Part shown: piece after piece, positions 1 through 18,810 of the stretch
Layout of the letters: the number at the start of each line of letters is the position of its first letter
Position numbering within the stretch: the stretch's first letter is position 1
Assembly (NCBI GenBank): GCA_963745075.1
Contig: CAVUWV010000024.1
Coordinates: 128,001 to 192,000, forward strand
Length of the DNA stretch: 64,000 nt
DNA from: Candidatus Hydrogenedentota bacterium
Lineage (GTDB): Bacteria; Hydrogenedentota; Hydrogenedentia; Hydrogenedentales; SLHB01
Reading direction: 5' to 3'
Notes under the pieces: model-generated
Databases searched by the model: none
What the model saw: only the letters and a program-made list of their open reading frames with translations
What the model was told of the DNA's origin: nothing
Made by a program: the position numbers and the translations under genes

Positions 1-3000
1 GACTTAGCCTTTCTCCAATACACCTCGGGCTCCACGTCCCTTCCCAAAGGCGTCATGGTGTCCCATGGCAACTTGTTGCACAATTGCGGATATATCCAGA
101 GCGCACTCGGCCTGACCCCGGAAGACCACGTCCTCAGTTGGTTGCCCCAATTCCACGATATGGGGCTTTTATCCGGCGTGCTGATACCGCCTTACGTGGG
201 GTGCCGTGCCTCCTTGATGGCCCCTATGTATTTTCTGCAACGTCCGGCCCGGTGGTTGCAGGCCATGTCCGAACTGAAAGCCACCGTTTCCGGTGGCCCG
301 AACTTCGCCTACCAACTTTGTGTGGACAAGGTTGTGGAGGACGATTGCAAGACGCTCGATTTGGCATCCTGGCGGGTGGCGTTCAACGGCGCCGAGCCCA
401 TTCGTCCAGGAACCCTGGATGCGTTCACCGCTAAGTTCCGCTCGTGCGGTTTCCGTCACGAAGTGCACGTGCCCTGTTACGGTCTCGCGGAAGCTACCCT
501 CGCCGTCACGTTCGCAAAATGTGACGCCGCTCCGGTGGTCCGCGAGTTTACCCCTTCGGAACAGTTGGACTCGGATGCGAGTGCCGCCCCGGAACGCACG
601 CGTTCATTGGTCGCGTGCGGAGCGCCAGCGGACGATCAAACGGTGCGCATCGTCAATCCCGAAACCCGCCACGAATGCGCCCACCGCGAGGTCGGTGAGA
701 TTTGGGTCCGCGGCGAAAGTGTGGCGCAGGGATATTGGAACCGTCCGGAAGAAACGGCGGCAACCTTCGACGGTCGACTTGCCGATACCGACGACGGCGC
801 CTATTTGCGCACGGGAGATTTGGGGATTTTGGCCGACAGTCAGCTCTATGTCGCCGGACGCCTCAAAGATCTCATCATCATTCGCGGGATTAACTACTAT
901 CCCCAGGATATCGAATTGACGGTCGAGTCATGCCACCCGGTGCTGCGTTCCGGCTGCGGAGCCGCCTTCGCGGTCGAAGATTCAGGTACGGAACGGTTGG
1001 TTGTGGCGCAAGAAGTTTCCCGCGACGATGTCGACGAATTCGATGTTGATGACGTAGCGAGCGCGATTCGATCCGCCGTGGGCGAGCAACATGAGTTGGA
1101 AGTCTACGCGGTCCTGTTGCTGCAACCCGGCTCGATTCCCAAGACTTCCAGCGGCAAAATCCAGCGGCGCGCGTGCCGGAATGCATATTTGGCCGGGAAG
1201 TTGGCTCTCGTCGGTCAATCCACGCGCGAAGAGACAGGAATTGCCGGCGATGCCGTCGTCCCGTCACGGGTTGCGGCCACCGAACAGGATACCGAAAAAG
1301 CCTACGCGCGAATTCGCGATTTTCTCACGCACCGAATCGCCCTGCGACTCAGTATCGAGGTTGGCGCTGTTGATGTGAAGCAGCCCTTCTCAAGTCTAGG
1401 CCTCCATTCCATGGCCGCCGTCGAAATGGCCGCCGATCTCGAGAAGATGATGGGGCACTCGCTGTCGCCGACACTGGCGTACGAGTATCCCTGTATCGAC
1501 GCCCTCTCTCATCACCTCGCCGGATCGTGGGTGCCTTTCACATCCGAATCCGAGAGCCGCAAGCAGGGCGAACCCATCGCCATCGTCGGCATGAGTTGCC
1601 GCTTCCCCGGCGCCAACAGCACCGCCGAATTCTGGTCCCTGTTGCGCGAAGGACGTGATGCGATTCGGGAAATCCCCCAGGAACGGTGGGACTTGGAAGC
1701 GCTCTACGATCCGGATACGGCGACTCCGGGTAAGATGATTACCAAATGGGGCGGGTTTATTGACGGCGTGGATCAATTTGATGCGGCGTTTTTCAACATT
1801 TCACCGCGCGAAGCCGCTAGTATGGATCCGCAGCAGCGGGTATTGCTCCAAGTTGCCTGGGAAGCCCTGGAACACGCGGGAATCCGGCCCGACCGTCTCG
1901 GAGGCTCTGCCACGGGATCGTTCATTGGAATCTCCTCGATCGACTATCTGCAACTCCAGCTCCTTCTGGGCGCCGAAAACGACGCATACGTCGCGACCGG
2001 AAACACCCAGTCGATCGCGTCGAACCGTCTTTCCTATCTACTCGATCTTCACGGACCCAGCGTGTCAGTGGATACGGCATGCTCGTCTGCTTTGGTGGCA
2101 TTGCATCAGGCCTGCCAAAGTCTGCGTGACCGGGAGTGCAGTCTTGCGCTCGCCGGCGGAGTCAGCGTGATCTTGTCACCGCTGGCAACCGTCGCGCTGT
2201 CCCAGGCGCGGATGCTCGCGCCGGACGGACGCTGCAAAGCCTTCGACGCGTCCGCCGACGGTTATGTGCGCAGCGAAGGGTGCGGAATCGTTGTGCTCAA
2301 GCGTCTTGCCGACGCACTGGCCGATGGTGACAACGTGTTGGCCGTCGTTCGGGGTACCGCCGTCAACCACGTCGGGCACAGCAACGGCTTGACGGCGCCC
2401 AGCACCAAAGCCCAACAGGCCGTCATTCGCGCCGCGCTCGACAACGCCGATGTCGCGCCCGCCGAAGTCTCCTTTCTCGAAGCGCACGGTACCGGCACCG
2501 CTTTGGGCGATCCGATCGAGATCGAATCCATTCAAGCAGTCCTGTCGGAAGGCCGTGATCCGGAAAACCGGTGCGCCATCGCCTCCGCAAAAAGTAACGT
2601 GGGCCACTTGGAACCCGCGGCCGGGATCGTCGGGCTGATCAAGGTCGTCCTCGCGTTGCTGCACGAAGAGATTCCGCTGCATCTTCATCTGAACCAACTG
2701 AACCCACTCATCAAACTCGATGAGTCGCGTTTCGAGATTCCAACGGACCGAAAGCCCTGGTCCCGTGGCGCCCGCCGCCGTCTTGCCGGTGTGAGTGCCT
2801 TCGGATTCGGCGGCGCGAACAGCCACGTGGTACTCGAAGAAGCGCCGCTCACGGTTTCCGTAAAGGCAAAGGATGCGCCCGAGCGGCCACGGCACGTCTT
2901 AACGTTGTCCGCCCGCACCGAAACGGCCTTGCACGCATTGGCCCGTCGCTATTCGGAATTCGTTACAACCGGCGGCGTGTCGGTGCCGGACCTCTGTTAC

Positions 3001-6000
3001 GCCGCAAATACCGGCCGGTGCTCCTTTGAACAACGACTGGCCATCGTCACGGAACCACTCGATGGCGAGAATGCTGCACAGTCGCTTCGTGATGTGCTTG
3101 CCACTGTCGCCGAAGGGAAGAAGACTCCGACCGCCTTGCGCGGCACCGTGCGCCCCGGGAACCGTCCAAAGCTTGCGTTCCTGTTCACCGGTCAAGGCGC
3201 GCAGTTCGCCGCCATGGGGCGGCAGTTGTACGAGACCGAACCGGTGTTCCGCGCGACCATCGATCGGTGCGATGCAATTCTCCGCGAGTACCTCGAACAG
3301 CCTTTGTTGTCGGTTCTGTACCCGCCGGAGGGTGCGAATTCCCCGATCAATGAAACGGCCTACACCCAGCCTGCATTGTTCGCGCTGGAGTATGCTCTCG
3401 CCGAACTGTGGCGATCGTGGGGCATCGTCCCCGACTACCTCCTCGGCCATAGCGTCGGCGAATATGCCGCCGCGTGTTTTGCCGGCATGTTCAGTCTCGA
3501 AGACGGCCTCAAACTCATTGCCGAACGCGGACGCCTGATTCAGTCGTTGCCGGCAGGCGGCAAGATGGCTGCCATCTTCACCGACCACGCAACGGTCGAC
3601 GCTGTGGTGAAAAAATACTCCGATTCCATATCCGTGGCCGCCGTGAATGGACCCAACCTCGTCGTCGTGTCCGGCGAAGGCGAGGCACTTGACGCCGTCG
3701 TCGAGCACTTTTCCGAGCAGAACGTGCGCTGCACGCGCATGACGGTTTCCCACGCGTTCCATTCACCCTTGATGGATCCGATTCTCGATGCATTCTTCGA
3801 AGTTGCCAACGGCGTAACCTATCGGCCTTTGCTGATTCCCCTCGTTTCCAACCGCACCGGACAGACGCTCGAAAAAGGCGACACGCTGGACGCCGCCTAC
3901 TGGCGCGACCACATCCGCGACGCGGTACTCTTTGACGGTGGCATGCAGGCACTCGCCGATCACGGCGTTTCCATGTTCCTCGAGATTGGACCCGCAAACA
4001 CGCTTATCGGAATGGGACGCCGTTGTCTCTCCAAGACCGAAGCGACATGGCTTCCGTCTCTCGGAAAAGACCCGGACAATTGGCGGACCCTGCTGACCGC
4101 CGCGGCCACGCTGCACGTCAATGGAATTGAGTTGGATTGGCACGCCTTTGATGCCGAACGGCCCCGTCGGCGCGTCGCAGTGCCGACCTATCCTTTCGAA
4201 TTGAAACGCTTCTGGTTTACCGAGCGGCCCGGCGCGTCTTCCGAGATTGTCCGTGCGCTCGGAGGCCAGGTTGCCGGCGGTATTTCGGACGCCGCTACGC
4301 TCAGCGAAGAAGACCGCGCGAAAGTTTCCAGCTGGTTTTACGGTATCGACTGGGAGACCCTTCCCGAGGTGCCGAAATCCAAGGACACGGGCCGTTGGCT
4401 GATCTTTGCGGAAGACACGCCGTTTTCGAAGGTCCTTCTTGAAGAGTTTGAGGCGCGTGGTCTGAATGTAACCCGCGTCGGCCGCGGTTCGAAGTGCTCC
4501 TGCGATGGTCCAACGTGGACGGTGCGTCCCGATTCGCCCGAAGATATCGACCGCTGTCTTGATGCCGCCTTCAGTTCCAACGGCTCGGGAAAGACCGGCG
4601 TCCTTTACATGGGGGGAGCGCCCTCGTTAGTGGACCAAAACGCTCCCGGTTCGGATGCGTTGGCTGCCTATTCGACTTCCTGCCGTGGCGCCTTCGCGGT
4701 AGCGCAAACCCTGGCTCGGCGCGCCGTATCGAAAACTGCCCCGAAACTCTACGTTGTGACTCGGGGTACGCAGTGCACGGCAGACGACGCAAACGCCCCG
4801 AATATGGCGGATGCCTCCCTCTGGGCATTGGGTCGTTGTATCGCGCTCGAACATCCTGACGTCATGGCCAAGCTCATCGATCTTCCAATTCCGGATGACG
4901 TCCAAGCGGCCACCGTTGCCGACGAACTTCTCGCGGCCGACAACGAAAACATGGTCGCCCTGCGGTCTTCCAACCGCTACGGTGCGCGCGTCACGCCCTT
5001 AACAGACAAAGACGAAAAACCCAAACCTCGTTTCCACTGCACCCCCGACGGCGCGTACCTCATCACCGGCGGATTCGGCGGTCTCGGCGTCAAAGTCGCG
5101 CAGTGGCTCGTTCGAAATGGCGCCCGCAGGCTAATCCTCCTGTCTCGAACCGCATTACCTCCGCGTGCAGAGTGGGCGACGCTCGATGCGTCAAGCCGCC
5201 CTGGAGCGAATGCGGCCGTAGTACGTGACCTCGAAGCGATGGGCGCTGCCGTTCACGTCGCCGCCGTCGACGTCGCGGACGCCGACGCCCTCGATCATTT
5301 CCTCGAAACATACCGTCTTGAACTGTGGCCCCAGATTCGCGGTGTTATCCATGCCGCGGGACTGCTGGACGACCAGTTGATTCATGACCTGGACCCCATA
5401 TCCTTTGAACGGGTCGGTCGTTCCAAAGTTGCCGGTGCCTGGAATCTCCATCGCGCCTTCAGCGACGCGGATCTCGATTTCTTTATATTGTTCTCGTCGG
5501 CTGCGTCCATGTTCGGATCGGTGGGGCAGGGGAACTACGCCGCCGCAAACGGCTGGATGGACGCCCTGGCGCGCTACCGCCGTGCAAACGGCGTGACGGC
5601 TCTCAGCGTCAACTGGGGACCCTGGGCCGAAGTCGGTATGGCCGCCCAGCCCAACCGTGGCGGACGGCTCGCCCAGCAGGGCATTGCCAGTATCGAGCCC
5701 GATCTCGGGTTGGCCGCCCTTGGCATGCTGCTCGCACGCGAAGATGCGCAGGTCGGCGTCGTCGATGCGGATTGGTCGGCGCTGCAGTCGCTCTTCGACG
5801 CGGGCGACGGCGTACCGTTCCTGTCCAAGGTGGCCGGTGCGACGAAGGCCGCCTTGCCCAGCGACCGGTGCAAGAAGATTCTCGATTCCGAAGGTGACGA
5901 ACGACGGAAGCTCATTGAGGAGCAGCTCTGCGCGTCGATCGGCGAGGTGCTCCATACCGATCCCGCAGCAATTCCCGTGGACCAGAACGTCGTAAATCTG

Positions 6001-7155
6001 GGCCTCGACTCGATCATGGTCATGGACTTGATTCGCAACATTGGCCGCGACCTCAAGATTCGGATCCACCCCCGCGAGGTCTTCGAACAGCCGTCGCTGA
6101 ACGGACTCGCCACATACATTGGCACCGAACTCGACATCATGCAGCACAAACGTGCCGGGGAAGCGCCGCCGGAAGAAGGCTTCATCAAGGCCAACATCAA
6201 CAAGGCGCGCGGCAAAATCACCGCGCCCCCCAAGCCCGAAAAGAAAAACCCACCCTGCGTGTTCCTGCTCTCCGCGCCGCGTTCGGGCTCGACCCTGCTC
6301 CGCGTCATGCTGGCTGGGCATTCCGGCCTGTTCAGTCCCCCGGAATTGCACATTCTCCATTTCCATTCCATGCGAGACCGCCGGACTTTCCTCGGTGAAG
6401 GCAATTATCTCGGCGACGGGTTGCAACGGGCCTTCATGGAAGCCCAGGGAATCGATGCCGACGCCGCAGAGAAACGTATCGAGCGGATGTACGAAGAAGA
6501 CACACTCATCCAAGACGTATTTACCTTGTTGCAGGAACAGGTCAACCCCCGGTTGCTCGTGGATAAATCACCGACGTATACCGGCCGTCGCGAGACCCTG
6601 GAGCGCGCCGAGGATCTCTTCGAGAACCCCAAGTACATCTATCTCTATCGCCACCCCTACGCGGTAATCGAGTCGTACGTGAAGAACCGTACCGGGAAGA
6701 TGTTCGATTTCGGACACGCCGATCCCTATCTCCTGGCGGAAGAAGTGTGGGCGTCCCACAACGAGAACACCATCGAGTTCTTGAAAGCCGTGCCGGACGA
6801 CCGCCAGTTCCCGGTGCGCTACGAAGAACTTGTCACCGATCCCGAACGCATCATGCGCGACATGTGCGCGTTTCTCGACCAGCCGTTTGAACCGGCGGTT
6901 CTCGATCCCTACGCGAAAGGCCGCATGACCGACGGCGTGCGCTCGAAGGCCCGCGCGATCGGCGATCCCAACTTCATGAAACACACGTCGATCGATCCGA
7001 CGCTGGCCGACGCGTGGAAACGCGCCAAACTGCCCTATCCACTGAAGGAATGGGCGCAGCGTATCGCCGACGTACTCGCGTACGAACTCCCGAACGAGCA
7101 CCTCGCGGAAGCGCATGCCGGTTCCACGGAGGAAATGGAGGAAGAGCGCCTATGA
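1..7155 (+). CDS. 5'-truncated type I PKS: FAAL-ACP-KS-AT-KR-ACP-sulfotransferase (CurM/Ols-like, no TE)
   Basis: The frame is open from base 1 (DLAFLQYTSGSTSLPKGVMVSHGN, a FAAL A3 motif). Motifs: WLPQFHDMGL, KTSSGKIQR; ACP1 LGLHS (~1399); KS DTACSS (~2071), HGTGT, KSNVGHLE; AT GHSVG and HAFH (malonyl type); KR GGFGGLG, HAAGLLDD, NYAAAN; ACP2 GLDS (~6001); ST APRSGSTLLR, PELH, DKSP, RHPYAVIES. Confidence 0.93.
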   Translation, partial: DLAFLQYTSGSTSLPKGVMVSHGNLLHNCGYIQSALGLTPEDHVLSWLPQFHDMGLLSGVLIPPYVGCRASLMAPMYFLQRPARWLQAMSELKATVSGGPNFAYQLCVDKVVEDDCKTLDLASWRVAFNGAEPIRPGTLDAFTAKFRSCGFRHEVHVPCYGLAEATLAVTFAKCDAAPVVREFTPSEQLDSDASAAPERTRSLVACGAPADDQTVRIVNPETRHECAHREVGEIWVRGESVAQGYWNRPEETAATFDGRLADTDDGAYLRTGDLGILADSQLYVAGRLKDLIIIRGINYYPQDIELTVESCHPVLRSGCGAAFAVEDSGTERLVVAQEVSRDDVDEFDVDDVASAIRSAVGEQHELEVYAVLLLQPGSIPKTSSGKIQRRACRNAYLAGKLALVGQSTREETGIAGDAVVPSRVAATEQDTEKAYARIRDFLTHRIALRLSIEVGAVDVKQPFSSLGLHSMAAVEMAADLEKMMGHSLSPTLAYEYPCIDALSHHLAGSWVPFTSESESRKQGEPIAIVGMSCRFPGANSTAEFWSLLREGRDAIREIPQERWDLEALYDPDTATPGKMITKWGGFIDGVDQFDAAFFNISPREAASMDPQQRVLLQVAWEALEHAGIRPDRLGGSATGSFIGISSIDYLQLQLLLGAENDAYVATGNTQSIASNRLSYLLDLHGPSVSVDTACSSALVALHQACQSLRDRECSLALAGGVSVILSPLATVALSQARMLAPDGRCKAFDASADGYVRSEGCGIVVLKRLADALADGDNVLAVVRGTAVNHVGHSNGLTAPSTKAQQAVIRAALDNADVAPAEVSFLEAHGTGTALGDPIEIESIQAVLSEGRDPENRCAIASAKSNVGHLEPAAGIVGLIKVVLALLHEEIPLHLHLNQLNPLIKLDESRFEIPTDRKPWSRGARRRLAGVSAFGFGGANSHVVLEEAPLTVSVKAKDAPERPRHVLTLSARTETALHALARRYSEFVTTGGVSVPDLCYAANTGRCSFEQRLAIVTEPLDGENAAQSLRDVLATVAEGKKTPTALRGTVRPGNRPKLAFLFTGQGAQFAAMGRQLYETEPVFRATIDRCDAILREYLEQPLLSVLYPPEGANSPINETAYTQPALFALEYALAELWRSWGIVPDYLLGHSVGEYAAACFAGMFSLEDGLKLIAERGRLIQSLPAGGKMAAIFTDHATVDAVVKKYSDSISVAAVNGPNLVVVSGEGEALDAVVEHFSEQNVRCTRMTVSHAFHSPLMDPILDAFFEVANGVTYRPLLIPLVSNRTGQTLEKGDTLDAAYWRDHIRDAVLFDGGMQALADHGVSMFLEIGPANTLIGMGRRCLSKTEATWLPSLGKDPDNWRTLLTAAATLHVNGIELDWHAFDAERPRRRVAVPTYPFELKRFWFTERPGASSEIVRALGGQVAGGISDAATLSEEDRAKVSSWFYGIDWETLPEVPKSKDTGRWLIFAEDTPFSKVLLEEFEARGLNVTRVGRGSKCSCDGPTWTVRPDSPEDIDRCLDAAFSSNGSGKTGVLYMGGAPSLVDQNAPGSDALAAYSTSCRGAFAVAQTLARRAVSKTAPKLYVVTRGTQCTADDANAPNMADASLWALGRCIALEHPDVMAKLIDLPIPDDVQAATVADELLAADNENMVALRSSNRYGARVTPLTDKDEKPKPRFHCTPDGAYLITGGFGGLGVKVAQWLVRNGARRLILLSRTALPPRAEWATLDASSRPGANAAVVRDLEAMGAAVHVAAVDVADADALDHFLETYRLELWPQIRGVIHAAGLLDDQLIHDLDPISFERVGRSKVAGAWNLHRAFSDADLDFFILFSSAASMFGSVGQGNYAAANGWMDALARYRRANGVTALSVNWGPWAEVGMAAQPNRGGRLAQQGIASIEPDLGLAALGMLLAREDAQVGVVDADWSALQSLFDAGDGVPFLSKVAGATKAALPSDRCKKILDSEGDERRKLIEEQLCASIGEVLHTDPAAIPVDQNVVNLGLDSIMVMDLIRNIGRDLKIRIHPREVFEQPSLNGLATYIGTELDIMQHKRAGEAPPEEGFIKANINKARGKITAPPKPEKKNPPCVFLLSAPRSGSTLLRVMLAGHSGLFSPPELHILHFHSMRDRRTFLGEGNYLGDGLQRAFMEAQGIDADAAEKRIERMYEEDTLIQDVFTLLQEQVNPRLLVDKSPTYTGRRETLERAEDLFENPKYIYLYRHPYAVIESYVKNRTGKMFDFGHADPYLLAEEVWASHNENTIEFLKAVPDDRQFPVRYEELVTDPERIMRDMCAFLDQPFEPAVLDPYAKGRMTDGVRSKARAIGDPNFMKHTSIDPTLADAWKRAKLPYPLKEWAQRIADVLAYELPNEHLAEAHAGSTEEMEEERL

Positions 7156-10100
7156 CACCCGGGGGCCTCCTTGCAAAAATCCTTGCGAGGGGGGTGCACG
7201 TATGGGCCGAAGACATTGAGCTTTGCCTCCGTGCACCGAAGGGCGCCCTGTCTTCCGAATTGCGCGATGCCCTGAAGGCCAACAAGTCTGAGGTCATCGC
7301 GCTGTTGGGCCAACGCCGGAAACACGCTCCCGCATCCTATGCCCAACGCCGTCTCTGGTTCTTCGATCAACTCGAACCAAACCGGTCGACCTACAACATG
7401 CACTTGACCTATCGCCTGACCGGTGCCTTGGACGTGGTCGCGCTTGAGCAAAGTCTCAGTGCCATCGTCCGCCGTCATGAAACCCTTCGAACGTCGTTTA
7501 CCAGTTTCGAAGACCAGCCCGTCCAGGTTATTGCCGAAGATGTTCCGTTTCAGGTGAGCCATTGCGAACTCGAAAATGGCGAAAGCGATGAGGACGCACG
7601 GCTTCGCCGCCAAGTAGACAGCTACACGCGCACCCCTTTCACGCTATCCAACGCCCCATTGATGCGGGCCTATCTGATTCGCTTGCGACCCGACATGCAC
7701 GTACTTACCATCGTCCTGCATCACATCATCGCGGATGGCTGGAGCATGCGCGTCGTACTACGTGAACTGGCGGCGCACTATGCGGCCTTTGCCCGGGGAG
7801 GCCAACCGGCCATCGATCCGTTGCCGCTTCAATACGCGGATTACGCCCGCACCCAGCGGAATTGGCTTGAGAACGACCTCGATAAACGCCTCGCGTACTG
7901 GCGCGAACAACTCGCCGGTCCGCCGCCACCATTGATGCTACCCACGGATCGGTCCCGTCCCGCATTTCAAACCTTCCATGGCGGACGCGAACTGCTGGAA
8001 CTGGACCCCGAACTCGTTGCGTCATTGCGGAAACTGAGTACCGACGAAGGTGCCACCCTATTCATGACACTGTTGGCGGCCTTCGAGGTGTTGTTGTACC
8101 GCTATTCCGGCCAGGAAGACTTTGTCGTCGGTTCGCCGGTTGCGGGCCGCTCCCACCCCGGCACCGAAAACATGATTGGTTTCTTCGTCAATACGGTCGG
8201 GCTGCGTGCGAACTTCGATGGGAATCCCGAGTTTCGGGAATACCTTCGTCGCACGCGCGAAACGGTGCTTCACGCTTTCGAGCATGAGGATTTGCCCTTT
8301 GAGAAACTCGTCGAAGAACTGCACCCGGAACGTGACCTGAGCCGCACGCCGCTTTTCCAGGTCCTTTTCAATATGATTAACATGGGCGGCGACTCGCTTG
8401 AAATGGGGGACGTTACGGTCGATCGCCTGTACCGCCGCGAGCCGGAGTCCAAGTTCGACCTGACCATGTACGTCCGTCCGAAAGCAGGCAAGATTCGGCT
8501 CATGCTCGTGTACAACCGGGATCTTTTCGACAAAGAAACCATCGTGGGCATGTTGCGCGATCTTCGCTCGCTTCTCGAAGCGATCGCGGCCAACGCCGAT
8601 GCGCCCGTCGCCTCGTTACCGATGGCCCAGCGCGAACCGGATACAACGGTCGCGTTGCCGGAATCCGCGTCTGTGGTCGATTTCGATCGACCCATCCACC
8701 ACGTATTCGAAGATAGAGTGTCCGAAACCCCGGACAATATCGCCATTGCCACCCGCGAGCACGAGTGGACCTATTTCGACCTGAATCAAAGAGCGGATAC
8801 CATCGCGGCCGGATTGATGGAATCGACAGGCGCGAAGAACGCACGCATTGCTCTCGTATTCAATCACGGTGCGCCGATGATTGCCGCCGTTTTGGGAGCG
8901 TTGAAAGCGGGAAAGACCTACGTTCCCATGGACGCCGGATATCCGCAAGCCCGCTTGCGCTACATGATCGACGACGCGCAGGTTCAGGCCATCCTCACGA
9001 CGTCAGATCTGCTCGAATCAGCACGCGAGCTTGCAGACGGCCGCTGTCCCGTCTGTTCAATTGACGAATTCCAACCGGTAGAACGATTCGCGAGCGTGGA
9101 CACGGATTCAGAGACGCCAGCGTATATTCTCTACACCTCGGGGTCCACGGGTAATCCCAAAGGCGTCGTGCAGAACCATCGAAATCTGCAACACTTCATC
9201 GACGCCTACGTGCAGCGCCTTGGTCTGACGCCCAACGACCGGCTTAGTCTGCTATCGTCATTCGGGTTCGACGCGGCAGTCATGGACATCTTTTCGGCCT
9301 TGCTTACAGGGGCGTCCCTTGTCCCAATCAATCTCAAAACCGAAACGTTGCCAGACGCTATGGAATGGATGGCGACGCGACGCGTCACCGTCTACCACAG
9401 CACGCCAACCGTATTCCGCGCGTTCATAAGTGCGGTTTCGAGCGGGGAGAACAACAATGACATTCGAACCGTCGTTCTTGGTGGTGAAGTAGTCACTCGC
9501 CGAGACGTTACGCGGTTCCGGAAGCACTTCCCGTCCGATTGCAGGCTCGTAAATCTGTACGGCAGCGCAGAGGCCTCGTTCACGTGTTGCCACGTCGTAT
9601 CAGATGGGGGAGAGAGCGTCGGAGCGGTCGTTCCCATCGGTCATGCTGTGGACCGTACCGAGATTCGGCTGTTGAATGCATACGGCGGCGAAGAGCCGGT
9701 CTTCGGTGAAATCGTCGTATGCAGCCGTCATACGGCGTTAGGATATTGGACCCGCGACGCGGAGACTGCCGCAGTCTTTGGAACCGACCCGGAGCGTGAG
9801 GAAATCCGTATTTACCGTACCGGTGATCTGGGTCGCCGCCGCGCTGACGGCGTCATCGAGTACCTCGGACGTCGGGATTTCCAAATCAAGGTCCGCGGGT
9901 ACCGTGTTGAGCCCGGCGAGATCGAGACGCTCTTGAATAGATACCCCGGTGTTACCGAATCCGTCGTAGTGGCGAAGGAAGCCGACGGTGGCGACACGAA
10001 ACTCGTAGGGTATGTCGTCATTGGTGCCGGCCAGTCCCTTGATTCGCCCGCGCTGCGCGCGCATCTGAGCGGAAGACTGCCGGACTACATGATTCCGACG

Positions 10101-13100
10101 ACGTTGGTGACGCTCGATGCGTTGCCGCGAACAACGTCTCGGAAAAATCGATCGCCGCGCCTTGCCGATGCCCGAGTCTTTTGGAGAATCCGTCGGCGAA
10201 TATGTCGCGCCACGGACCCTCACGGAAGAACTTGTTGCGGGCATCTGGGAACAGGTGCTGACGCGGGGTCGCATCGGCATGCTGGATCGGTTTTTCGACA
10301 TCGGCGGTCATTCGCTGCTCGCCACGCAGGTCGTATCGCGCATTCGGGATACCTTCGATGTGAACCTGCCCCTGCGCGCACTCTTCGAGCATCCGACCGT
10401 AGCGGGACTTGCCGCCCGAATCGACGCCCTTCGCCAAGAGGCAACCGACTCCCATATACCGCCCATCACGCAGATTTCTCGGGACAAGCCGCTGCCGCTC
10501 TCGTTTTCCAGCAGCGGCTCTGGGTCCTGGATCAGTTGGGCGCACGCGACGGCGCGTATACCATGTCGACTGCCATGCGTCTGGCCGGCGAACTGAACGT
10601 CGATGCACTGGAAAAGGCATTCTCCCGGCTGATCGAGCGTCATGAAAGTCTCCGCACGGTCTTCGTCGTTGACCGCGACGAACCGCATCAGAAAATACTG
10701 CCGGCTCGCCCGTTTCCCTCGCTCCCATCACAATCGACGATCGTGCACCCGATGAGCGCAAAGCCGATGCTATGCGTCGTGCGTCGGAAGAGGCGGCCGA
10801 ACCCTTCGACTTGACGACCGGTCCGCTCATTCGGGTTCGGTTGTATCGACTTGGTCCACTGCGACCACGTCTTGTCGGTCATGATTCATCACATCGTTTC
10901 CGATGCGCTGGTCCATGGGTGTTCTCGTGCGCGAGATTCAGCAGTCGTACGAAGCGTTTGCGCGGGAATTGGAACCGGATCTACCCGCTCCTGAACGTTC
11001 AATACCCCGATTTCGCGAAGTGGCAACGGTCCTGGTTACAGGGCGAGGCCTTGGAATCTCAGTTGGCGTATTGGCGTCAGCATTTGGACCGCGCCCCGGC
11101 CACGCTCGATCTTCCCACGGACCGGCCGCGTCCTCCCGTCCGCAGGTTTGTCGGTGATCGCGTCACGTCGCAACTGCCGTCAGAAATCGCCGAACAACTC
11201 CGAGCCCTCGGCCGCGAAGAAGGCGCCACCCTGTTCATGGTGCTGTTTGCCGCCTTCAACGTGCTGCTCCATCGCTATTCGGGCCAGGATGACGTGGTGG
11301 TCGGCACCCCCATCGCCAATCGGAGTCGCCGGGAACTGGAGCCCCTGATCGGGTTCTTTGTTAACACGCTGGCCATTCGCACCAATCTGTCGGGTAATCC
11401 CACCTTCCGGACGTTGCTCCAACGCGTGCGCGAAGCGGCCCTCGGCGCGTACGCCCATCAGGATCTGCCCTTTGAACGTTTGGTCGAGGAATTGCATCCC
11501 GAGCGCGATTTGAGCCGCTCGCCGATCTTCCAGGCCATGTTCGTCCTGCAGAACGCGCCTAAGTCGCACCATCATCTGCCGGGCCTCACCCTGACGCGTA
11601 TCCCATTGGATACCCATCGCGCCCGTTTTGACGTGGTCATGGCGGTCAATGATACTGCCGACGCGCTGAACGTGGCCCTCGAATTCAATACGGATCTTTT
11701 CGACGCGTCCACCATGGAGCGGCTCCTGGGACATTTCGCTACGATGCTCCAGGCTATCGCACAAGACGGAAACGAAGCGGTCGGCACCGTGCCCATCTTG
11801 ACCGAGTCCGAGCGAGAAGCGCTTCTGCATACGTGGAATCAGACCCAGGCGCCGTACCCAGTCGACCGCTGCGTACACGAACTGCTCCAGGCGCAAGCCT
11901 CCCGTCGTCCCGACGCCATCGCATTGGACGACGGCGACCGGCGTATTACCTACCGCGAACTCAATGAACGCGCCAATCGTGTTGCGCACCGTCTGTTGGG
12001 CCTCGGCGTGAATATCGAATCACGCGTAGCCGTTTGCGCGTATAAGCGTATGGACGCCGTAATTGGTTCGCTGGCGATCATGAAGGCCGGTGCTGCGTAC
12101 ATTCCATTGGACCCGGCCCACCCGTTGGAACGACTCCAGTTCATGCTTGACGATTCCGGTGCGAACGTACTGCTGGCGGATCGCAGGTTCCATGAGGCTT
12201 TCGCATCCGACAGTGTCACGCGGGTCAGTGTCGACGACTGTATTTGCAACCCCGAACTGGACGCAGGAGACCCCGTCACCGCCGTGACTCCCGAGAATCT
12301 CGCTTACGCGATCTACACATCGGGATCCACCGGATGGCCCAAGGCCGTCCTTATCGAGCATCGCTCTGTGCTGAATCTGATCCAGTGGCACCAGCGCGTC
12401 TTCTCGGTTACGGATCGCGACCGGACAAGCCATTTGGCTGGGCCGGCATTCGATGCGTCCGTCTGGGAATTGTGGCCTCATCTAACGGCAGGTGCGACCG
12501 TCTGCATTCCCCCCGACGAAATCCGGATATCGGCGGAACAATTGCGCGACTGGTTCGTCGCCAATCAAATTACGATAGCCTTCGTGCCGACCCCGTTGGC
12601 CGAGATGATGGTCGCGTTGCCATGGCCGAAGGAATGCGTGCTGCGCTCCATGCAAACCGGCGGTGAAGCGCTGAGTGTGTTTCCCCCGCAGTCTTTGCCC
12701 TTTGAACTCGTCAACAATTACGGCCCCACGGAAAACACGGTCATAACGAGTTCCGGCGTCGTCGCTGAACCCCGCCACGAACATGATTTGCCCGCGCTCG
12801 GTCGCCCGATAGACAACGTAGAAATCTACGTGCTGGACTGCCATCGTCAGCCCGTTCCGGTCGGCGTGCCTGGCGAACTGCACGTCGGCGGTTCCGGAAT
12901 CGCGCGTGCCTATTTGAATCGCCCCGAGTTGACTGCCGAGAAATTCATCCCGCACCCGTTCAGCGATTCGGCTGATGCGCGATTGTACCGGACCGGTGAC
13001 ATGGTTCGGTATCGGCCGGATGGTTCACTAGAGTTTCTTGGTCGAAATGACGATCAGGTCAAACTGCGCGGGTACCGGATCGAATTGGGAGAAATCCAGC

Positions 13101-16100
13101 GTGCGGTCTATGACCATCCGAACGTAGCGACCGCCGCGGTCCTGTTCCGTCCAAGTTGTTCCGGCGATGACCGAATCGTGGCATACATAGTTTGGAAGCA
13201 CGGATATGAAGTTGACCTCGATAACCTGCGTTCCATCCTGGCGTCACGCCTCCCCGCATACATGGTGCCGGCCGCGTTCGTGCAAATGGACGTCCTTCCT
13301 CTGACGCGAAACGGTAAAATCAACGTCTCTGCACTACCACCGCCGGAGGAATTCACACGCGCCATCGATGCCGATGACCATCCCCAAGGCCCGACCGAGG
13401 AAGCCATTGCCGCCATTTGGTGTGCCGTACTGGGTATCAATCGCATCGGCCGCACCCAGCGCTTCTTCGACTCGGGGGGGCACTCGCTCAAAGCGACCCA
13501 GGTCATGTCCCGCATGCGCGACGCATTTGGGGTTGAACTGCCGTTGCGCACCCTGTTCGAAGTCCAAACCGTCGAGGGGCTGGCCGCACGCGTCGAATCG
13601 GAGATGGACGACTCAGGGCAAGCTGCGGATACGATTGTCACCTACACGGGAACCGACGATCCGCCCCTTTCATTTTCCCAGCAACGACTCTGGTTCCTGG
13701 ATCGGCTGGGCGCGCGCGACGGCGTGTACACCATTTCCACTGCGTTGCGTCTGCGTGGCGACCTGAACATCGAAGCATTGGAGCGCGCTCTCAACCACGT
13801 CGTGCGCCGCCACGACGTCCTGCGCACGTATTTCGGCGGAGACGAAAACCATCCCGTTCAAAAGATTGACGACGATTTTCAAATCGCGCTCGCGCCTCTC
13901 GACCTCTCCGATACGCTCGAGCCGCACCGAACCAACGAGGTGTCTCGTATCGTCCAGCAGCTTTCGTTGGAACCGTTTGATCTGCGGTCGGGCCCACTCG
14001 TCCGAGTCGCGCTACTTCAACTTGGCGACAAGGAACACGTGCTCAACGTCTCCATGCACCACGCCATTTCCGACGGCTGGTCCATGGGAGTCTTTGCCCG
14101 CGAATTGACGGCATTCTACAACGCCGAAATCGGGGACGAATACGCGGAGTTGCCCGGTCTGCCCATCCAATATGCGGACTTTTCCGCTTGGCAGCGTGAC
14201 AAACTCCGTGGGCAAGCCCTCAAAGTGCAGATGGAGTACTGGACGGAGCATCTCCGCGACGCTCCGGCAGTCCTCGAACTGCCCACCGACCACCCGCGAC
14301 CGGCCGTACAAACGTTTAATGGCGGTCGCGAATCCTTTCGTATCGAACGGGCAAGTTGGGACCGCGTCGAAGCGATGTGCAGCAGGGAGGGGGTAACGCC
14401 GTTCATGGCCCTCTGCGCGGCGTTCGATGTTCTCATCTACCGGTATACCGGTCAGGAAGACTTCGTCATCGGCACACCGATTGCCAACCGTAACCGTGCC
14501 GAGATTGAAAACCTGATTGGGTTCTTCGCCAATACCCTGGCACTCCGGTTTCATGTGGACGGTCAGGCATCCTTCCGGCAACTCCTGAACCAGGTGCGCG
14601 ACGTGGCCCTCGGTGCCTTTTCCCACCAGGACGTCCCCTTCGAAAAACTCGTGGAAGAACTGGCGCCGGAACGAAGCCTTTCGCGAAGCCCGCTGTTCCA
14701 GGTTATGTTTGCCCTCCAGAATGTAGACGCACAGTTGCCAAAACTCCGAGGTCTCGACGTTGCGCGTGTCGAGCGCCCCGGACGCCGTTCCCGGTTCGAT
14801 TTGACGGTTACCGTATCGGCCGGTCCCGAGGGGCTATCGGTCAACGCGGAGTACAATGCAGACCTCTTCGATGCGGATACCATTCATCGCATGTTGAATC
14901 ATTACGCCGTAGTCATCTCCGAAGTCGCACGCACGACGGATGCGCCCGTGGCCACCATTCCCCTGCTTACCGAAGCCGAACGCCGAACGCTGCTCTACGA
15001 CTGGAACGACACCGCGGTTCCCGTTCCCCTCGAGAAATGCGTTCACCAGCGTGTTGAAATACAGGCGTCGCGTCGGCCCGGTGTGGCTGCGCTAATTGAT
15101 AGCAATGGCCGGCTCACGTACGGAGAACTCAACCGGCGGGCCAACCGTCTTGCCCATCGCCTCGTGGAGCTTCGCGTTCACCCCAGGACCCGGGTCGCCG
15201 TATGCACGAGTCGGCGAATGGACACGGTCGTCGCGGAACTCGCCGTGCTGAAGGTCGGCGCCGCCTACGTGCCGTTGGATCCCTCGTATCCCGTCGAACG
15301 GTTGCGGTACATGGTCGAAGATTCCAGCGCAGTAGCGCTCATCACGGATCGTATTCTGGAACCGTCATTCCCACCCACTGAGGCGTTGCACGTCTGTATA
15401 GAGGATTGTTTTGACTCCGGCCACCTGCCGGATGCAAATCCCGATATAGCGATGACCGCATCCGATCCCGCGTACGCGATCTACACGTCCGGGTCTACCG
15501 GCCGCCCCAAGGGCGTTCTCATCGAACATCGCGGATTGTCGAACCTGGTCTATTGGCATCAACGGGCCTTCCACGTGACCAGCGCCGACCGGGCTACGCA
15601 TGTCGCCGGCCCCGCGTTCGATGCGTCCGTTTGGGAACTCTGGCCCTATCTCAGTGCCGGCGCCACCGTGTATATCGCCGACGAGATGACGCGGGTTTCG
15701 GCGTCCCACCTGCGACTGTGGATTCTCGAGCATTCCATTACGATCTCATTCTTGCCCACGCCCTTGGCCGAGCAAGTCATCGGGATGGATTGGCCGGCCT
15801 CCTGCCCGCTGCGCGCCCTGTTGACCGGCGGCGATGCCTTGCACAAGCGCCCGCCGCCGTCCCTACCCTTTAGAGTGGTCAACAATTACGGTCCCACCGA
15901 AAATACCGTCGTCGCCACCTCTGGGCTCGTGGAGACGACGCACAATACCACGGGAACCCCAGCCTTGGGTCGGCCCATCGACAATACGGAAATCCTCGTG
16001 CTCGACCGCAACCTTCAGTTGGTCCCGGTGGGGGTCCCCGGCGAACTGCATGTGGGTGGGTTCGGACTGGCCCGCGGATACCTGAACCGGCCGGACTTGA

Positions 16101-17755
16101 CCGCCGAGCGGTTTATTTCGCATCCCTTCCGTGGCAATGGCTGCCGCCTTTACAAGACGGGCGATATCGCGCGCTATCGGTCCGATGGGTCCCTCGAATT
16201 CCTTGGACGGGCCGATCACCAGGTCAAGATTCGCGGGTACCGCGTCGAACTCGGCGAAATCGAATCGGTGCTGTGCCGCCAACCCGGAATTGAAGAAGCC
16301 GTCGTGCTTCCCCGCGCCAACGGTCCCAGCGGGCCTGCCCTTGCCGCGTTCGTGGTTCCTGCCTCGGGACAAGAAATCGACACGGAATTCTTACGGGACG
16401 CGCTCAACGCGGAACTCCCCAGTTACATGATTCCGACCAGTGTGACGGAGACCGAAGCGATTCCACTTTCTGCCCACGGGAAGGTTGACCGGGATGCGCT
16501 GCTGAAACTCGAGGCGCGAACTTCTGACGGCGTCGCGCGGCCGGACGAAGCACCGTCGACGGCCACGCAACAGGCGATAGCCGCAATTTGGTGTGACCTA
16601 CTCGAACGGGAGCGCGTCGGAATTCATGAAAACTTCCTCGATAGCGGCGGCCATTCCCTGCTCGCCGTCGAGTTGCTTTCCCGCATAAACGCCGCGTTTC
16701 ACATCGAGTTGCCATTGCGTACCGTTTTCGAAGAACCGACCATCATGGGGTTGGCGCGCCGGATCGATCTCCTGAATCAACTTCCCGTGGCGACATCGAC
16801 TACCAACGACATACTGGTGCCATTGCGGGCTACCGGGTCGCGCCCGCCCATATTTCTGATTGCGCCCGCCGGCGGAACGGTATTCGCCTATTACGCCCTT
16901 GCCCACCATCTTGGACCGGATCAGCCCGTGTACGCTCTCCAGGATCCCGCATACGAGGGCAATCGTCTGCCGTGCGACACCATCGAGGGGATGGCGCGCC
17001 TCTACATCGAGGCGATGCGTGCCATACAACCCAAGGGGCCTTACTTGATCGGGGGATGGTCATTCGGCGGAACCGTCGCCTTTGAAATGGCGCACCAACT
17101 ATCCGATGAGGTCGGTTTATTGTTCCTCATCGAGACGATTACCGGCGTTCGCGCTCCGGGCCGGACCCAAAAGACGCCGGTGGAGCGGTTGAAGCTCATG
17201 TATCGAAACTTAGGCGCTCGCGCTTCGTTGGCCCTTTCCGGCCTGGCCACGACGTGGGAAGGGGTCCGCTACGCGGTGGTGGCCACGCGTTTTGGCGGCT
17301 GGCTGCGCCGAATCGTGCGGGGCATCCGCAACTCGACGGCCGAACGGAGTTTCGCGCGGTCCTACGAACGCGCGCTCAACGCGTCCGCCCCGGAAATCAA
17401 AGGCGCCGGCACGCTGCTCGTACAACAGTCCGTGGCCCGGCATTGGATTCGCATCGCCATGGCCAACGCCCGAGCGTTTCGCCGCTACACCCCCACGCCG
17501 TTCCCGGGAAAACTGACGCTCTTTCTCGCGAAACGGCGCTTGACGGCGCGACCGGGTTCCGACCCCGCCCGTGGCTGGTCGCCCTTCGCCGAAGGCGGAG
17601 TGGACGTGCGCCTTCTGCCCGGCGATCACTTCTCGATTCTCAGAAATCCCAACGTCGTGAGATGCGCGCAAATCCTTCGCGACCGCGCGGACCAAGCGCA
17701 AACCCAAACGAAACGCCAGGCCGACCGGGAAACGACCCCGACGCTGGCATCCTGA
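7152..17755 (+). CDS. Trimodular NRPS: docking domain-C-A-T-C-A-T-C-A-T-TE, split by six single-base indels at ~10140-10990
   Basis: ATG overlaps the PKS stop (ATGA). TubC-type N-terminal docking domain; C motifs HHIIADG, HHIVSDA (out of frame), HHAISDG; three YTSGSTG A3 motifs; three GGHS carrier motifs; TE GWSFG and GDHFS. Reassembled by hand from ORFs 7014, 10117, 10772 and 10903. Confidence 0.88.
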
Positions 17756-17823: not shown

Positions 17824-18810
17824 TTACGGTCCGGTTACGTCATCGAAAACCTGTTTCACCGCATCGATGACCGCTTGGGGTTGGTCGACCTGGATGTCGT
17901 GTCCCGAATTCGCCACGACAATCAATTGTCCCTGCGGGGTCAGAGAGGCCTGGTCCTCGTCGAGCGTCTCCTTGATGCCGTCCGCGATGGTGGCTTGATC
18001 CGCAGGCACTTCGCCGGGATCGTAGTTTCCGGCACTCAGATAGATGAGCGGGATGTTTGGCAGCGAGCGATTCGCGCCGACTACATCATACGAATTGTAT
18101 CGGTTGTAGTACTCACCCCAAACCCCCGCCTTACCCGTCGCCCCGAAGTACACTCCATACTCAAGGTCTTCTTTTTCCAGCGACTCCGGCTTCAACGCCT
18201 CCGCCAATTCGTTTTCCATCAATTCGTGCGTCGCATCGACCAATACCAGCCCCGCAACCCGAGTTGGATGCTGATTCGTAAAGTAGCGAGCGAACAGACC
18301 CCCAAACGAATGGCCGCAGAGAATGACCGGATCCGTCAATCCCATGGCGTCGAGGAACGCCTCCAGTTCATCCGACACAATGTCCGGAGTGCGCGGGTTT
18401 TCGCCCTGATCGCTACATCCGACACCACCACGATCGTACGCAATCGCTGTGGTGAACGCCCCTACCTCAGGCAAAACCTTGCGCCAGACCGTCAGATTGT
18501 CGTCCTCGCCCGCCATCAAGATAACTGCTGGCCCGCCAGTACCTTCCTCCTCGTACAGTAGAGAATAGCCGCCAACGTCAATAGAGCTCAATTTGCTGCA
18601 ATCCTCCGGGAGTGATGGACATTGCTTGGCCGATACCGCCAGTAAGACTGCCACCGACAACGAAGCCAGCGTGCCTGCCGATCGCACCCCCAGCCGGCAC
18701 TTCCGGGTTGCAGCGTCATCGGGTTCGGGTTTCAGCTCAGTTTTCGGCTCAAATTGATTCATTGCCGCGGGCTCCTCGATAGTTTGCGCTGGGTGACGAT
18801 TTTTACACAT
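17824..18810 (-). CDS. Alpha/beta hydrolase, probably exported (real start may be ~18762)
   Basis: YDRGGVGCS, GHSFGG nucleophile elbow, SGHDIQ His motif; hydrophobic N-terminal stretch. Confidence 0.8.
   Translation of the reverse strand: MCKNRHPAQTIEEPAAMNQFEPKTELKPEPDDAATRKCRLGVRSAGTLASLSVAVLLAVSAKQCPSLPEDCSKLSSIDVGGYSLLYEEEGTGGPAVILMAGEDDNLTVWRKVLPEVGAFTTAIAYDRGGVGCSDQGENPRTPDIVSDELEAFLDAMGLTDPVILCGHSFGGLFARYFTNQHPTRVAGLVLVDATHELMENELAEALKPESLEKEDLEYGVYFGATGKAGVWGEYYNRYNSYDVVGANRSLPNIPLIYLSAGNYDPGEVPADQATIADGIKETLDEDQASLTPQGQLIVVANSGHDIQVDQPQAVIDAVKQVFDDVTGP

Follow-up and report, generated by a model that had tools for sequence, protein, structure and literature searches.

Sulfotransferase (ST) domains of the CurM type have a characterised role in providing a leaving group for alkene formation, and some published studies use them as a search marker for olefin synthases. 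What does such a domain do when its partner thioesterase (TE) is missing and a nonribosomal peptide synthetase (NRPS) follows it instead? This question is raised by a polyketide synthase (PKS) and NRPS gene pair of a Candidatus Hydrogenedentota bacterium (GCA_963745075.1; 6.8 Mb in 36 contigs, 89.7% complete). The pair occupies the first 17,755 nucleotides of the window, that is, the whole 64,000-nucleotide stretch analysed (positions 128001-192000 of contig CAVUWV010000024.1, here C24). The locus is real and conserved, and it is apparently uncharacterised; it varies a known set of parts and does not amount to a new kind of system. Its most likely product is a 3-O-sulfo-acyl-Xaa-(Leu-like)-Leu acid that would keep its sulfate. 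We assign this reading a probability of about 0.6, and retention of the sulfate is a step that we infer.

Polyketide synthase and sulfotransferase domain

The PKS frame (1-7155, + strand) is open at the 5′ end of the window and starts approximately 430-480 bp upstream on the contig. The Pfam scan annotated AMP-binding, two PP-binding, ketosynthase (KS), acyltransferase (AT), ketoreductase (KR), and Sulfotransfer_3 domains. The resulting order is fatty acyl-AMP ligase (FAAL)-acyl carrier protein (ACP)-KS-AT-KR-ACP-ST, with intact active-site motifs. The start of the protein scored 451/419 bits with FAAL models and 334/183 bits with acyl-CoA ligase models. The KS carries DTACS, HGTGT, and GHLE, and the AT carries GHSVG and HAFH, which we take to be malonyl-type motifs. 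The KR motif HAAGLLDD, within a PF08659 match, has the LDD in common with HAAGVLDD of the CurM-type proteins P0037 and P0040. The Pfam scan found no thioesterase, dehydratase (DH), or FkbH or GA glycerate-loading domain in the PKS, and Rfam gave no match within the window. The first-pass annotation, made from the letters alone, had described this domain order with intact motifs, a B-type LDD KR, and a PKS that stops right after the ST and is followed by a coupled NRPS of three modules and a TE. The reading frames, domain scans, and motif check agree with it on these points.

The ST is 54% identical to the CurM ST, and its three nearest records are 87% identical. The set of residues for catalysis and for binding of 3′-phosphoadenosine-5′-phosphosulfate (PAPS) is complete (R/T/E/H/K plus R/S), as it is in 117 of the 118 STs coupled to a CurM-type TE. 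We take these residues to be R39, T43, E60, H62, and K133 of the CurM work, plus the 3′-phosphate Arg and a Ser. The ratio of nonsynonymous to synonymous substitution rates (dN/dS) of the ST was approximately 0.07 against G106 (0.076/1.08) and 0.15 against G104 (0.243/1.60). The constraint on the ST was like that on the KS, and its dN lay far below that of the AT-KR linker. Under such purifying selection the ST is no leftover from the loss of a TE, and a decaying ST was ruled out by the intact residues and low dN/dS. The first-pass annotation had allowed for an inactive ST; the same two results predict an active one. An APS kinase for PAPS supply is encoded in the genome.

At position 148 of the ST query (window approximately 6691), Met was found in 91% of the 118 CurM-TE-coupled STs and in 19% of 68 uncoupled PKS STs. 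This residue may mark partner choice or merely kinship.

Junction of the two proteins

The PKS ends 14 aa past the ST match, and its stop codon (7153-7155) overlaps the NRPS start codon at 7152. The 4-nt overlap was found in 10 of the 11 ST-end loci checked in the phylum, this locus included, and the 11th has a type II TE gene in between. The tail residues of the PKS are invariant or at least 90% conserved across 10 aligned loci, and the EEERL tail and the TubC_N domain of the NRPS are conserved jointly in relatives. A misassembled junction, which the first-pass annotation had considered, was ruled out: the same junction recurs in independent assemblies, and a 508-base contig of the unrelated run X3 bridges 6813-7320 with 20 differences and no gap. 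Judged from sequence, the tail and TubC_N fit the short-motif/β-hairpin docking class, and the tail would dock on TubC_N. The short linear motif (SLiM)/β-hairpin pairs of tubulysin, enacyloxin, and rhabdopeptide likewise have a short charged C-terminal motif facing an N-terminal TubC_N before a condensation (C) domain. The SLiM motifs listed in the accessible part of PMC9113145 come after ACP, PCP, oxidase, Cy, and E domains, whereas the motif here comes after an ST.

Peptide synthetase and terminal thioesterase

The NRPS comprises TubC_N, three modules of C, adenylation (A), and thiolation (T) domains, and a TE, and it ends at 17755. The nearest PDB matches of C1 were Txo2, Txo1, 5u89, and TycC (328-257 bits), compared with at most 130 bits for surfactin-synthetase entries and 89 bits for McyA, whose C domain we take to be of the dehydrating class. 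C1 appears to resemble ordinary amide-forming domains. The A1 code DAMHVGLF(T/S)K is present in all six orthologues, and no substrate was assigned to it from the PDB, the homologue search, or a code search of papers. The A2 code here is DAWFQGNVIK, presumably Leu-like, and in four of the six orthologues it is Phe-type. The A3 code (DAWFLGNVVK, presumably Leu) is identical in five of six. Both codes, re-read here, gave the same assignments as the first-pass annotation. No epimerase was found in the NRPS. The A2 domain (window 11885-13336) matches A3 of G106 at 54% and A2 of G106 at 41%, which suggests an A-domain exchange at module 2.

The terminal TE had 39 PDB matches, all of them TEs of NRPSs, fatty acid synthases, or PKSs. 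The CurM TE was not among them, and the domain could not be aligned to CurM TEs. In a tree of 57 TEs it grouped with ST-fused type I TEs (support 0.98), away from the CurM TEs. Unrelated NRPS TEs were absent from this tree as controls, so the shared TE group may partly reflect host kinship. The long lid and the Glu of the catalytic triad are present in six orthologues.

Search for a CurM-type thioesterase

The genome was searched in six frames with a hidden Markov model of 126 CurM-type TEs, whose members score at least 241.7 bits. Because the TE end of P0036, the CurM record, is aberrant, P0037, P0040, and P0106 served as TE probes. No CurM-type TE was found in this search of the 89.7% complete genome, the best score being 71.5 bits, and the TE acting in trans that the first-pass annotation had envisaged was not found either. 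An α/β hydrolase with GHSFG and an N-terminal hydrophobic segment lies convergently just downstream of the NRPS (17824-18810, − strand) and is present in G106 too. It was ruled out as a trans CurM TE by its score of 39.5 bits, its convergent orientation, and its hydrophobic segment. An Asp-nucleophile (GHDWG) hydrolase near a second ST cluster of the genome was ruled out by the TE profile search.

A terminal alkene is not expected from this locus, since a docking tail and an NRPS are present and a CurM-type TE is not. The line is Ols-like up to sulfation but lacks the TE that defines that class, so it is not an olefin synthase.

Distribution of the layout

The phylum has 32 CurM-type STs in 25 of 135 genomes, and 29 of them were examined. 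Thirteen end in a tail facing a TubC_N-C NRPS, and 12 carry a fused type I TE. A C domain comes after three and E-TE after one; a CurM TE follows none of the 29. The docked loci have an NRPS of one, two, or three modules where the contig permits, and over all loci 0-3 peptide modules come after the ST.

A wider survey covered 276 ST stretches in 256 proteins (the best 120 of 1107 plus the best 150 of 6276) and is biased to relatives of the query. The ST was followed by a CurM TE in 130 stretches, a C domain in 49, the protein end in 41, a type I TE in 37, and something else in 19. The partner TE is thus missing in 146 of the 276 stretches and at all 29 phylum STs examined, so outside cyanobacteria the ST marker can be misleading. 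For 20 ST stretches among the surveyed proteins, KR-ACP-ST-C forms a single chain, which indicates that ST-then-C is a real order of steps. Such fused proteins also recur in metagenomes. The metagenome scan gave no match with a single sequence and gave matches with an alignment; a CurM TE was present in 61 of the best 80 of the 552 loci of the alignment-based scan. The first-pass annotation, which recognised no characterised cluster here, rated the uniqueness of the locus too highly: uncultured bacteria commonly have this layout, and there is precedent for built-in STs whose sulfate is kept.

An ST tree built with FastTree covered 197 of the 276 STs. The KR-module CurM-TE-coupled STs were represented in it by 40 of their 118 members, and stretches below 240 aa were dropped. 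The docked Hydrogenedentota STs form one group (support 0.98). The backbone did not resolve, and for this reason no order of events is claimed. A sister clade of STs is embedded in pure NRPSs, where the preceding A codes are Ser-type in nine cases, Thr-type in four, and Tyr-type in three (16 of 30), assignments that we presume from the codes. These codes suggest a tailoring O-sulfation. To our knowledge, an aryl sulfate cannot be eliminated.

Other arrangements were also observed. P0103 is FAAL-ACP-ST-TE, and L097:2896-12820 is FAAL-ACP-ST followed by TubC_N-C-A; neither KS nor KR was found in either. These minimal forms suggest that the hydroxy fatty acid to be sulfated is loaded directly. 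One NRPS family (P0013, P0014, P0017, P0020, P0021, and P0024) has two STs after one module with a DAED-type A code, and several of the first ST copies are divergent at the scored residues. In a cultured strain of Agrobacterium vitis, L129:13051-16698 (plasmid NZ_AP023281.1) is an NRPS of the form A-...-ST-type I TE near cysD/cysN and an ectB-like gene.

Predicted product and alternative explanations

We propose a two-protein line in which FAAL would load a fatty acid, followed by one malonyl extension, a B-type reduction, and PAPS-dependent sulfation of the new 3-hydroxyl on ACP2. These steps are taken from established CurM/Ols chemistry. C1 would then accept the sulfated donor, the chain would pass through the three peptide modules, and the type I TE would release the product by hydrolysis. 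The likely structure, as predicted from the domains and codes, is R-CH(OSO3-)-CH2-CO-Xaa-(Leu/Phe)-Leu-OH. Decarboxylative elimination requires an acyl carboxyl adjoining the sulfate-bearing carbon, according to the accessible parts of PMC6274090 and PMC3903477. Amide formation by C1 would remove this carboxylate, so that decarboxylative elimination should no longer be possible. The interpretation given in the first-pass annotation is supported overall, with the sulfate in the released product still a matter of inference, and its role as an anionic surfactant is speculation.

Several points weigh against a sulfated product. The NRPS is frameshifted in the source assembly, and the genome completeness of 89.7% limits the absence of a CurM-type TE. 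Elimination from the β-sulfo thioester could occur ahead of condensation. With 80 sulfatase (PF00884) matches in the genome, later desulfation of the product is possible, although none of these matches, several of which are split in two, lies inside the cluster. Among the NRPS-embedded STs, 14 of the 30 preceding A codes are not Ser/Thr/Tyr-type, one of them being Leu-type. These STs form a separate clade in which the His62 position is mostly Glu, and on that account they support sulfate retention only indirectly.

The sulfate might be installed but temporary. A sulfatase would remove it after release, or the TE would displace it while closing a 13-membered lactone (3-O plus three residues), and the working compound would be unsulfated. 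The number of sulfatases, the unusual lid and triad Glu of the TE, and the self-defence sulfation described for the allopeptimicins, which have a stand-alone ST, are consistent with this. However, the cluster itself has no sulfatase, and TEs of this group are also joined straight to an ST in proteins that offer no peptide for cyclisation. We know of no TE that displaces sulfate, and we consider a temporary sulfate unlikely. Somewhat less likely again is that the ST primes the 3-hydroxyl for on-line elimination to a 2-enoyl chain in place of a dehydratase, giving an unsaturated acyl tripeptide. The module has no DH, the ST has the residue set of the CurM-TE-coupled STs, and the family is characterised, in the accessible literature, as activating its substrate for elimination. 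Against this, there is no candidate for an eliminating domain between the ST and C1, and PAPS would be spent on what a DH does free. The C1 match to ordinary C domains (328 bits) also far exceeds that to McyA, which we assume to be dehydrating. Sulfation could be partial or bypassed, with a 3-hydroxyacyl tripeptide (possibly cyclised) as the main product and its sulfate ester formed only in minor amounts. C1 would be in competition with the ST for the ACP2-bound chain, and it has no feature linkable to sulfate recognition. The strong purifying selection on the ST and its retention in the 13 docked and three ST-then-C loci of the phylum count against this reading, which we rate a shade less probable than on-line elimination.

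If the NRPS were a true pseudogene in the source strain, this copy would make nothing past the PKS stage, whatever its intact relatives make. Frameshift-aware alignment to G106 placed the frame changes near 10140, 10507, ~10700, ~10857, 10908, and 10990, and elsewhere both genes are in single frame. The independent contigs cover only two of the six sites: the extra bases at 10140 and 10858 are missing in contigs of runs X1 and X3, each at a depth below 5 and weak singly. All six changes lie within 850 bp, and breaks were also found in a neighbouring gene and several sulfatases. The frame changes are probably assembly errors because five orthologous NRPSs are intact, with single frames of 3529-3544 aa, and a true pseudogene is very unlikely. 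The lowest probability, close to negligible, is given to an olefin synthase served by a CurM-type TE in trans, with a separate NRPS. The Ols domain string, the 40-57% identity to Ols-architecture proteins in five of seven domains, and the hydrolase just downstream point in this direction. That hydrolase scores far below the CurM-type TEs, no such TE was found in the genome or at the 29 phylum ST sites, and PKS and NRPS are linked by the docking elements.

Comparison with known assembly lines

The sulfated acyl tripeptide proposed here can be compared with several known systems. Ols of Picosynechococcus/Synechococcus PCC 7002 and other cyanobacteria (ST PDB 4gox) has the same FAAL-ACP-KS-AT-KR-ACP-ST order. 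The Ols-architecture proteins P0069 and P0106 are 47-50% identical to the present PKS in the FAAL, 56-57% in the KS, and 52% in the ST. In the present locus, a CurM-type TE is lacking both in cis and genome-wide, and the PKS ends in a docking tail that a three-module NRPS follows. The terminal module CurM of curacin A (PDB 4gbm) and HlaB of haliamide share KR(LDD)-ACP-ST with this PKS. In both, according to the accessible part of PMC6274090, ST-TE ends the line by decarboxylative elimination, whereas here the ST stands mid-line and a type I TE comes three modules later.

For DysB of dysinosin (PMC6520454), OciA of cyanopeptolin 1138/oscillapeptin E (PMC2533009), and AerB of suomilide/varlaxin (PMC10143770), it has been proposed that a built-in ST sulfates glycerate while it is bound to a carrier, ahead of condensation. 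The sulfated glycerate is kept in the dysinosin, suomilide, and varlaxin products (PMC6520454, PMC10143770); these statements follow the accessible parts of the papers. DysB, OciA, and AerB resemble the present line in a carrier-ST followed by an amide-forming C domain, here ACP2-ST, a docking domain, and C1 (HHIIADG). Their starter is an FkbH/GA-loaded glycerate, whereas the chain here would be a 3-hydroxy fatty acyl chain made by FAAL and PKS. No OciA or DysB sequence was identified among the ST matches listed, and the likeness to the present ST is drawn from descriptions and not from sequence kinship. By analogy, carrying a sulfate through condensation would have precedent, with a different starter.

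FAAL-primed PKS-NRPS lipopeptide lines of the hapalosin, puwainaphycin, and microginin type have the same FAAL-ACP start and then PKS/NRPS extension, as described in the accessible part of PMC11837247. The FAAL start, coupled PKS and NRPS, and terminal type I TE of a lipopeptide synthetase were all found here. For FAAL lines, that part of PMC11837247 names an ST only for the olefin route, whereas the present ST sits between PKS and NRPS. No characterised KR-ACP-ST-C line or case with a PKS-derived acyl chain was found in the searches made of an open-access library, which did not extend to subscription papers, supplements, or MIBiG. The accessible parts of PMC4558948, PMC11837247, PMC12858407, PMC9169493, PMC11143521, PMC8719888, PMC11155244, PMC10866078, and PMC11626197 contain no KR-ACP-ST-C case.

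We suggest tentatively, with clearly less than even confidence, that Hydrogenedentota make an undescribed family of assembly-line sulfolipids. These would be 3-O-sulfo fatty acids with 0, 1, 2 or 3 amino acids, made by one ST-PKS, interchangeable modules, and one TE group. More broadly, on-line O-sulfation would be the general function of CurM-type STs, and the alkene-forming pairing of CurM/Ols would be one use only. If the sulfate is kept, the locus would provide a rule by which O-sulfated lipopeptides could be predicted from genome sequences. It would also give engineers a sulfation domain that can be plugged in together with its docking tail, and a phylum known chiefly through metagenomes would gain a concrete specialised metabolite. 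Its interest to specialists lies in an activating ST that was likely reused for tailoring throughout a lineage.

Feature positions and other genes

Table 1. Domains and other features of the PKS-NRPS locus (positions in the window)
Feature	Position	Strand	Basis
FAAL domain, C-terminal part (domain begins 5′ of window)	1..1209	+	PF00501/PF23024
ACP1 (GLHS, Ser 1408-1410)	1306..1530	+	PP-binding, translation
KS, Cys-His-His motifs	1570..2841	+	PF00109/PF02801
AT, presumed malonyl-type motifs	3178..4131	+	PF00698
KR, LDD, B-type, motif as in CurM KR	5050..5631	+	PF08659
ACP2 (GLDS)	5920..6120	+	PF00550
CurM/Ols-type ST	6250..7101	+	PDB 4gbm E 8.8e-99; 4gox E 7.7e-84
Acidic C-terminal tail (ends EEERL), putative short docking motif, and stop overlapping next start	7129..7155	+	Alignment of 10 loci
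NRPS start and TubC_N (β-hairpin) docking domain	7152..7313	+	PF18563 E 8.4e-14
C1, HHIIADG	7317..8630	+	PDB matches
A1, code DAMHVGLFTK	8706..10145	+	Motif positions
Six single-base frame changes, end of A1 to first half of C2	10140..10990	+	Frameshift-aware alignment to G106
T1 (GGHS), shifted frame	10220..10430	+	Three-frame translation
Module 2, C2-A2-T2, A2 code DAWFQGNVIK	10490..13594	+	Domain scan, codes
Module 3, C3-A3-T3, A3 code DAWFLGNVVK	13661..16756	+	Domain scan, codes
Type I TE: GWSFG, Glu replacing usual Asp, GDH, long lid; not CurM-type	16847..17755	+	PF00975

A hydrophobic membrane-type protein is encoded 5′ of the window (C24:124982-126772, + strand), and G106 and G104 conserve it upstream of their PKS. 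The protein had no Pfam or NCBIfam match, and its gene has a frame change near the 3′ end in the source assembly. The second ST cluster of the genome (G000:C31:328779-337510, − strand) consists of a FAAL followed by KS-AT-KR-ACP-ST fused to a type I TE, and a phosphopantetheinyl transferase-like gene adjoins it. From this layout, the cluster could yield either a 3-sulfooxy fatty acid in free form or, through a non-CurM TE, an alkene. Stand-alone C-A-T-TE NRPSs with similar long-lid TEs are encoded at C18:312753-316889 (− strand) and C27:122271-126491 (− strand), and they are possible acyl-amino-acid synthetases.

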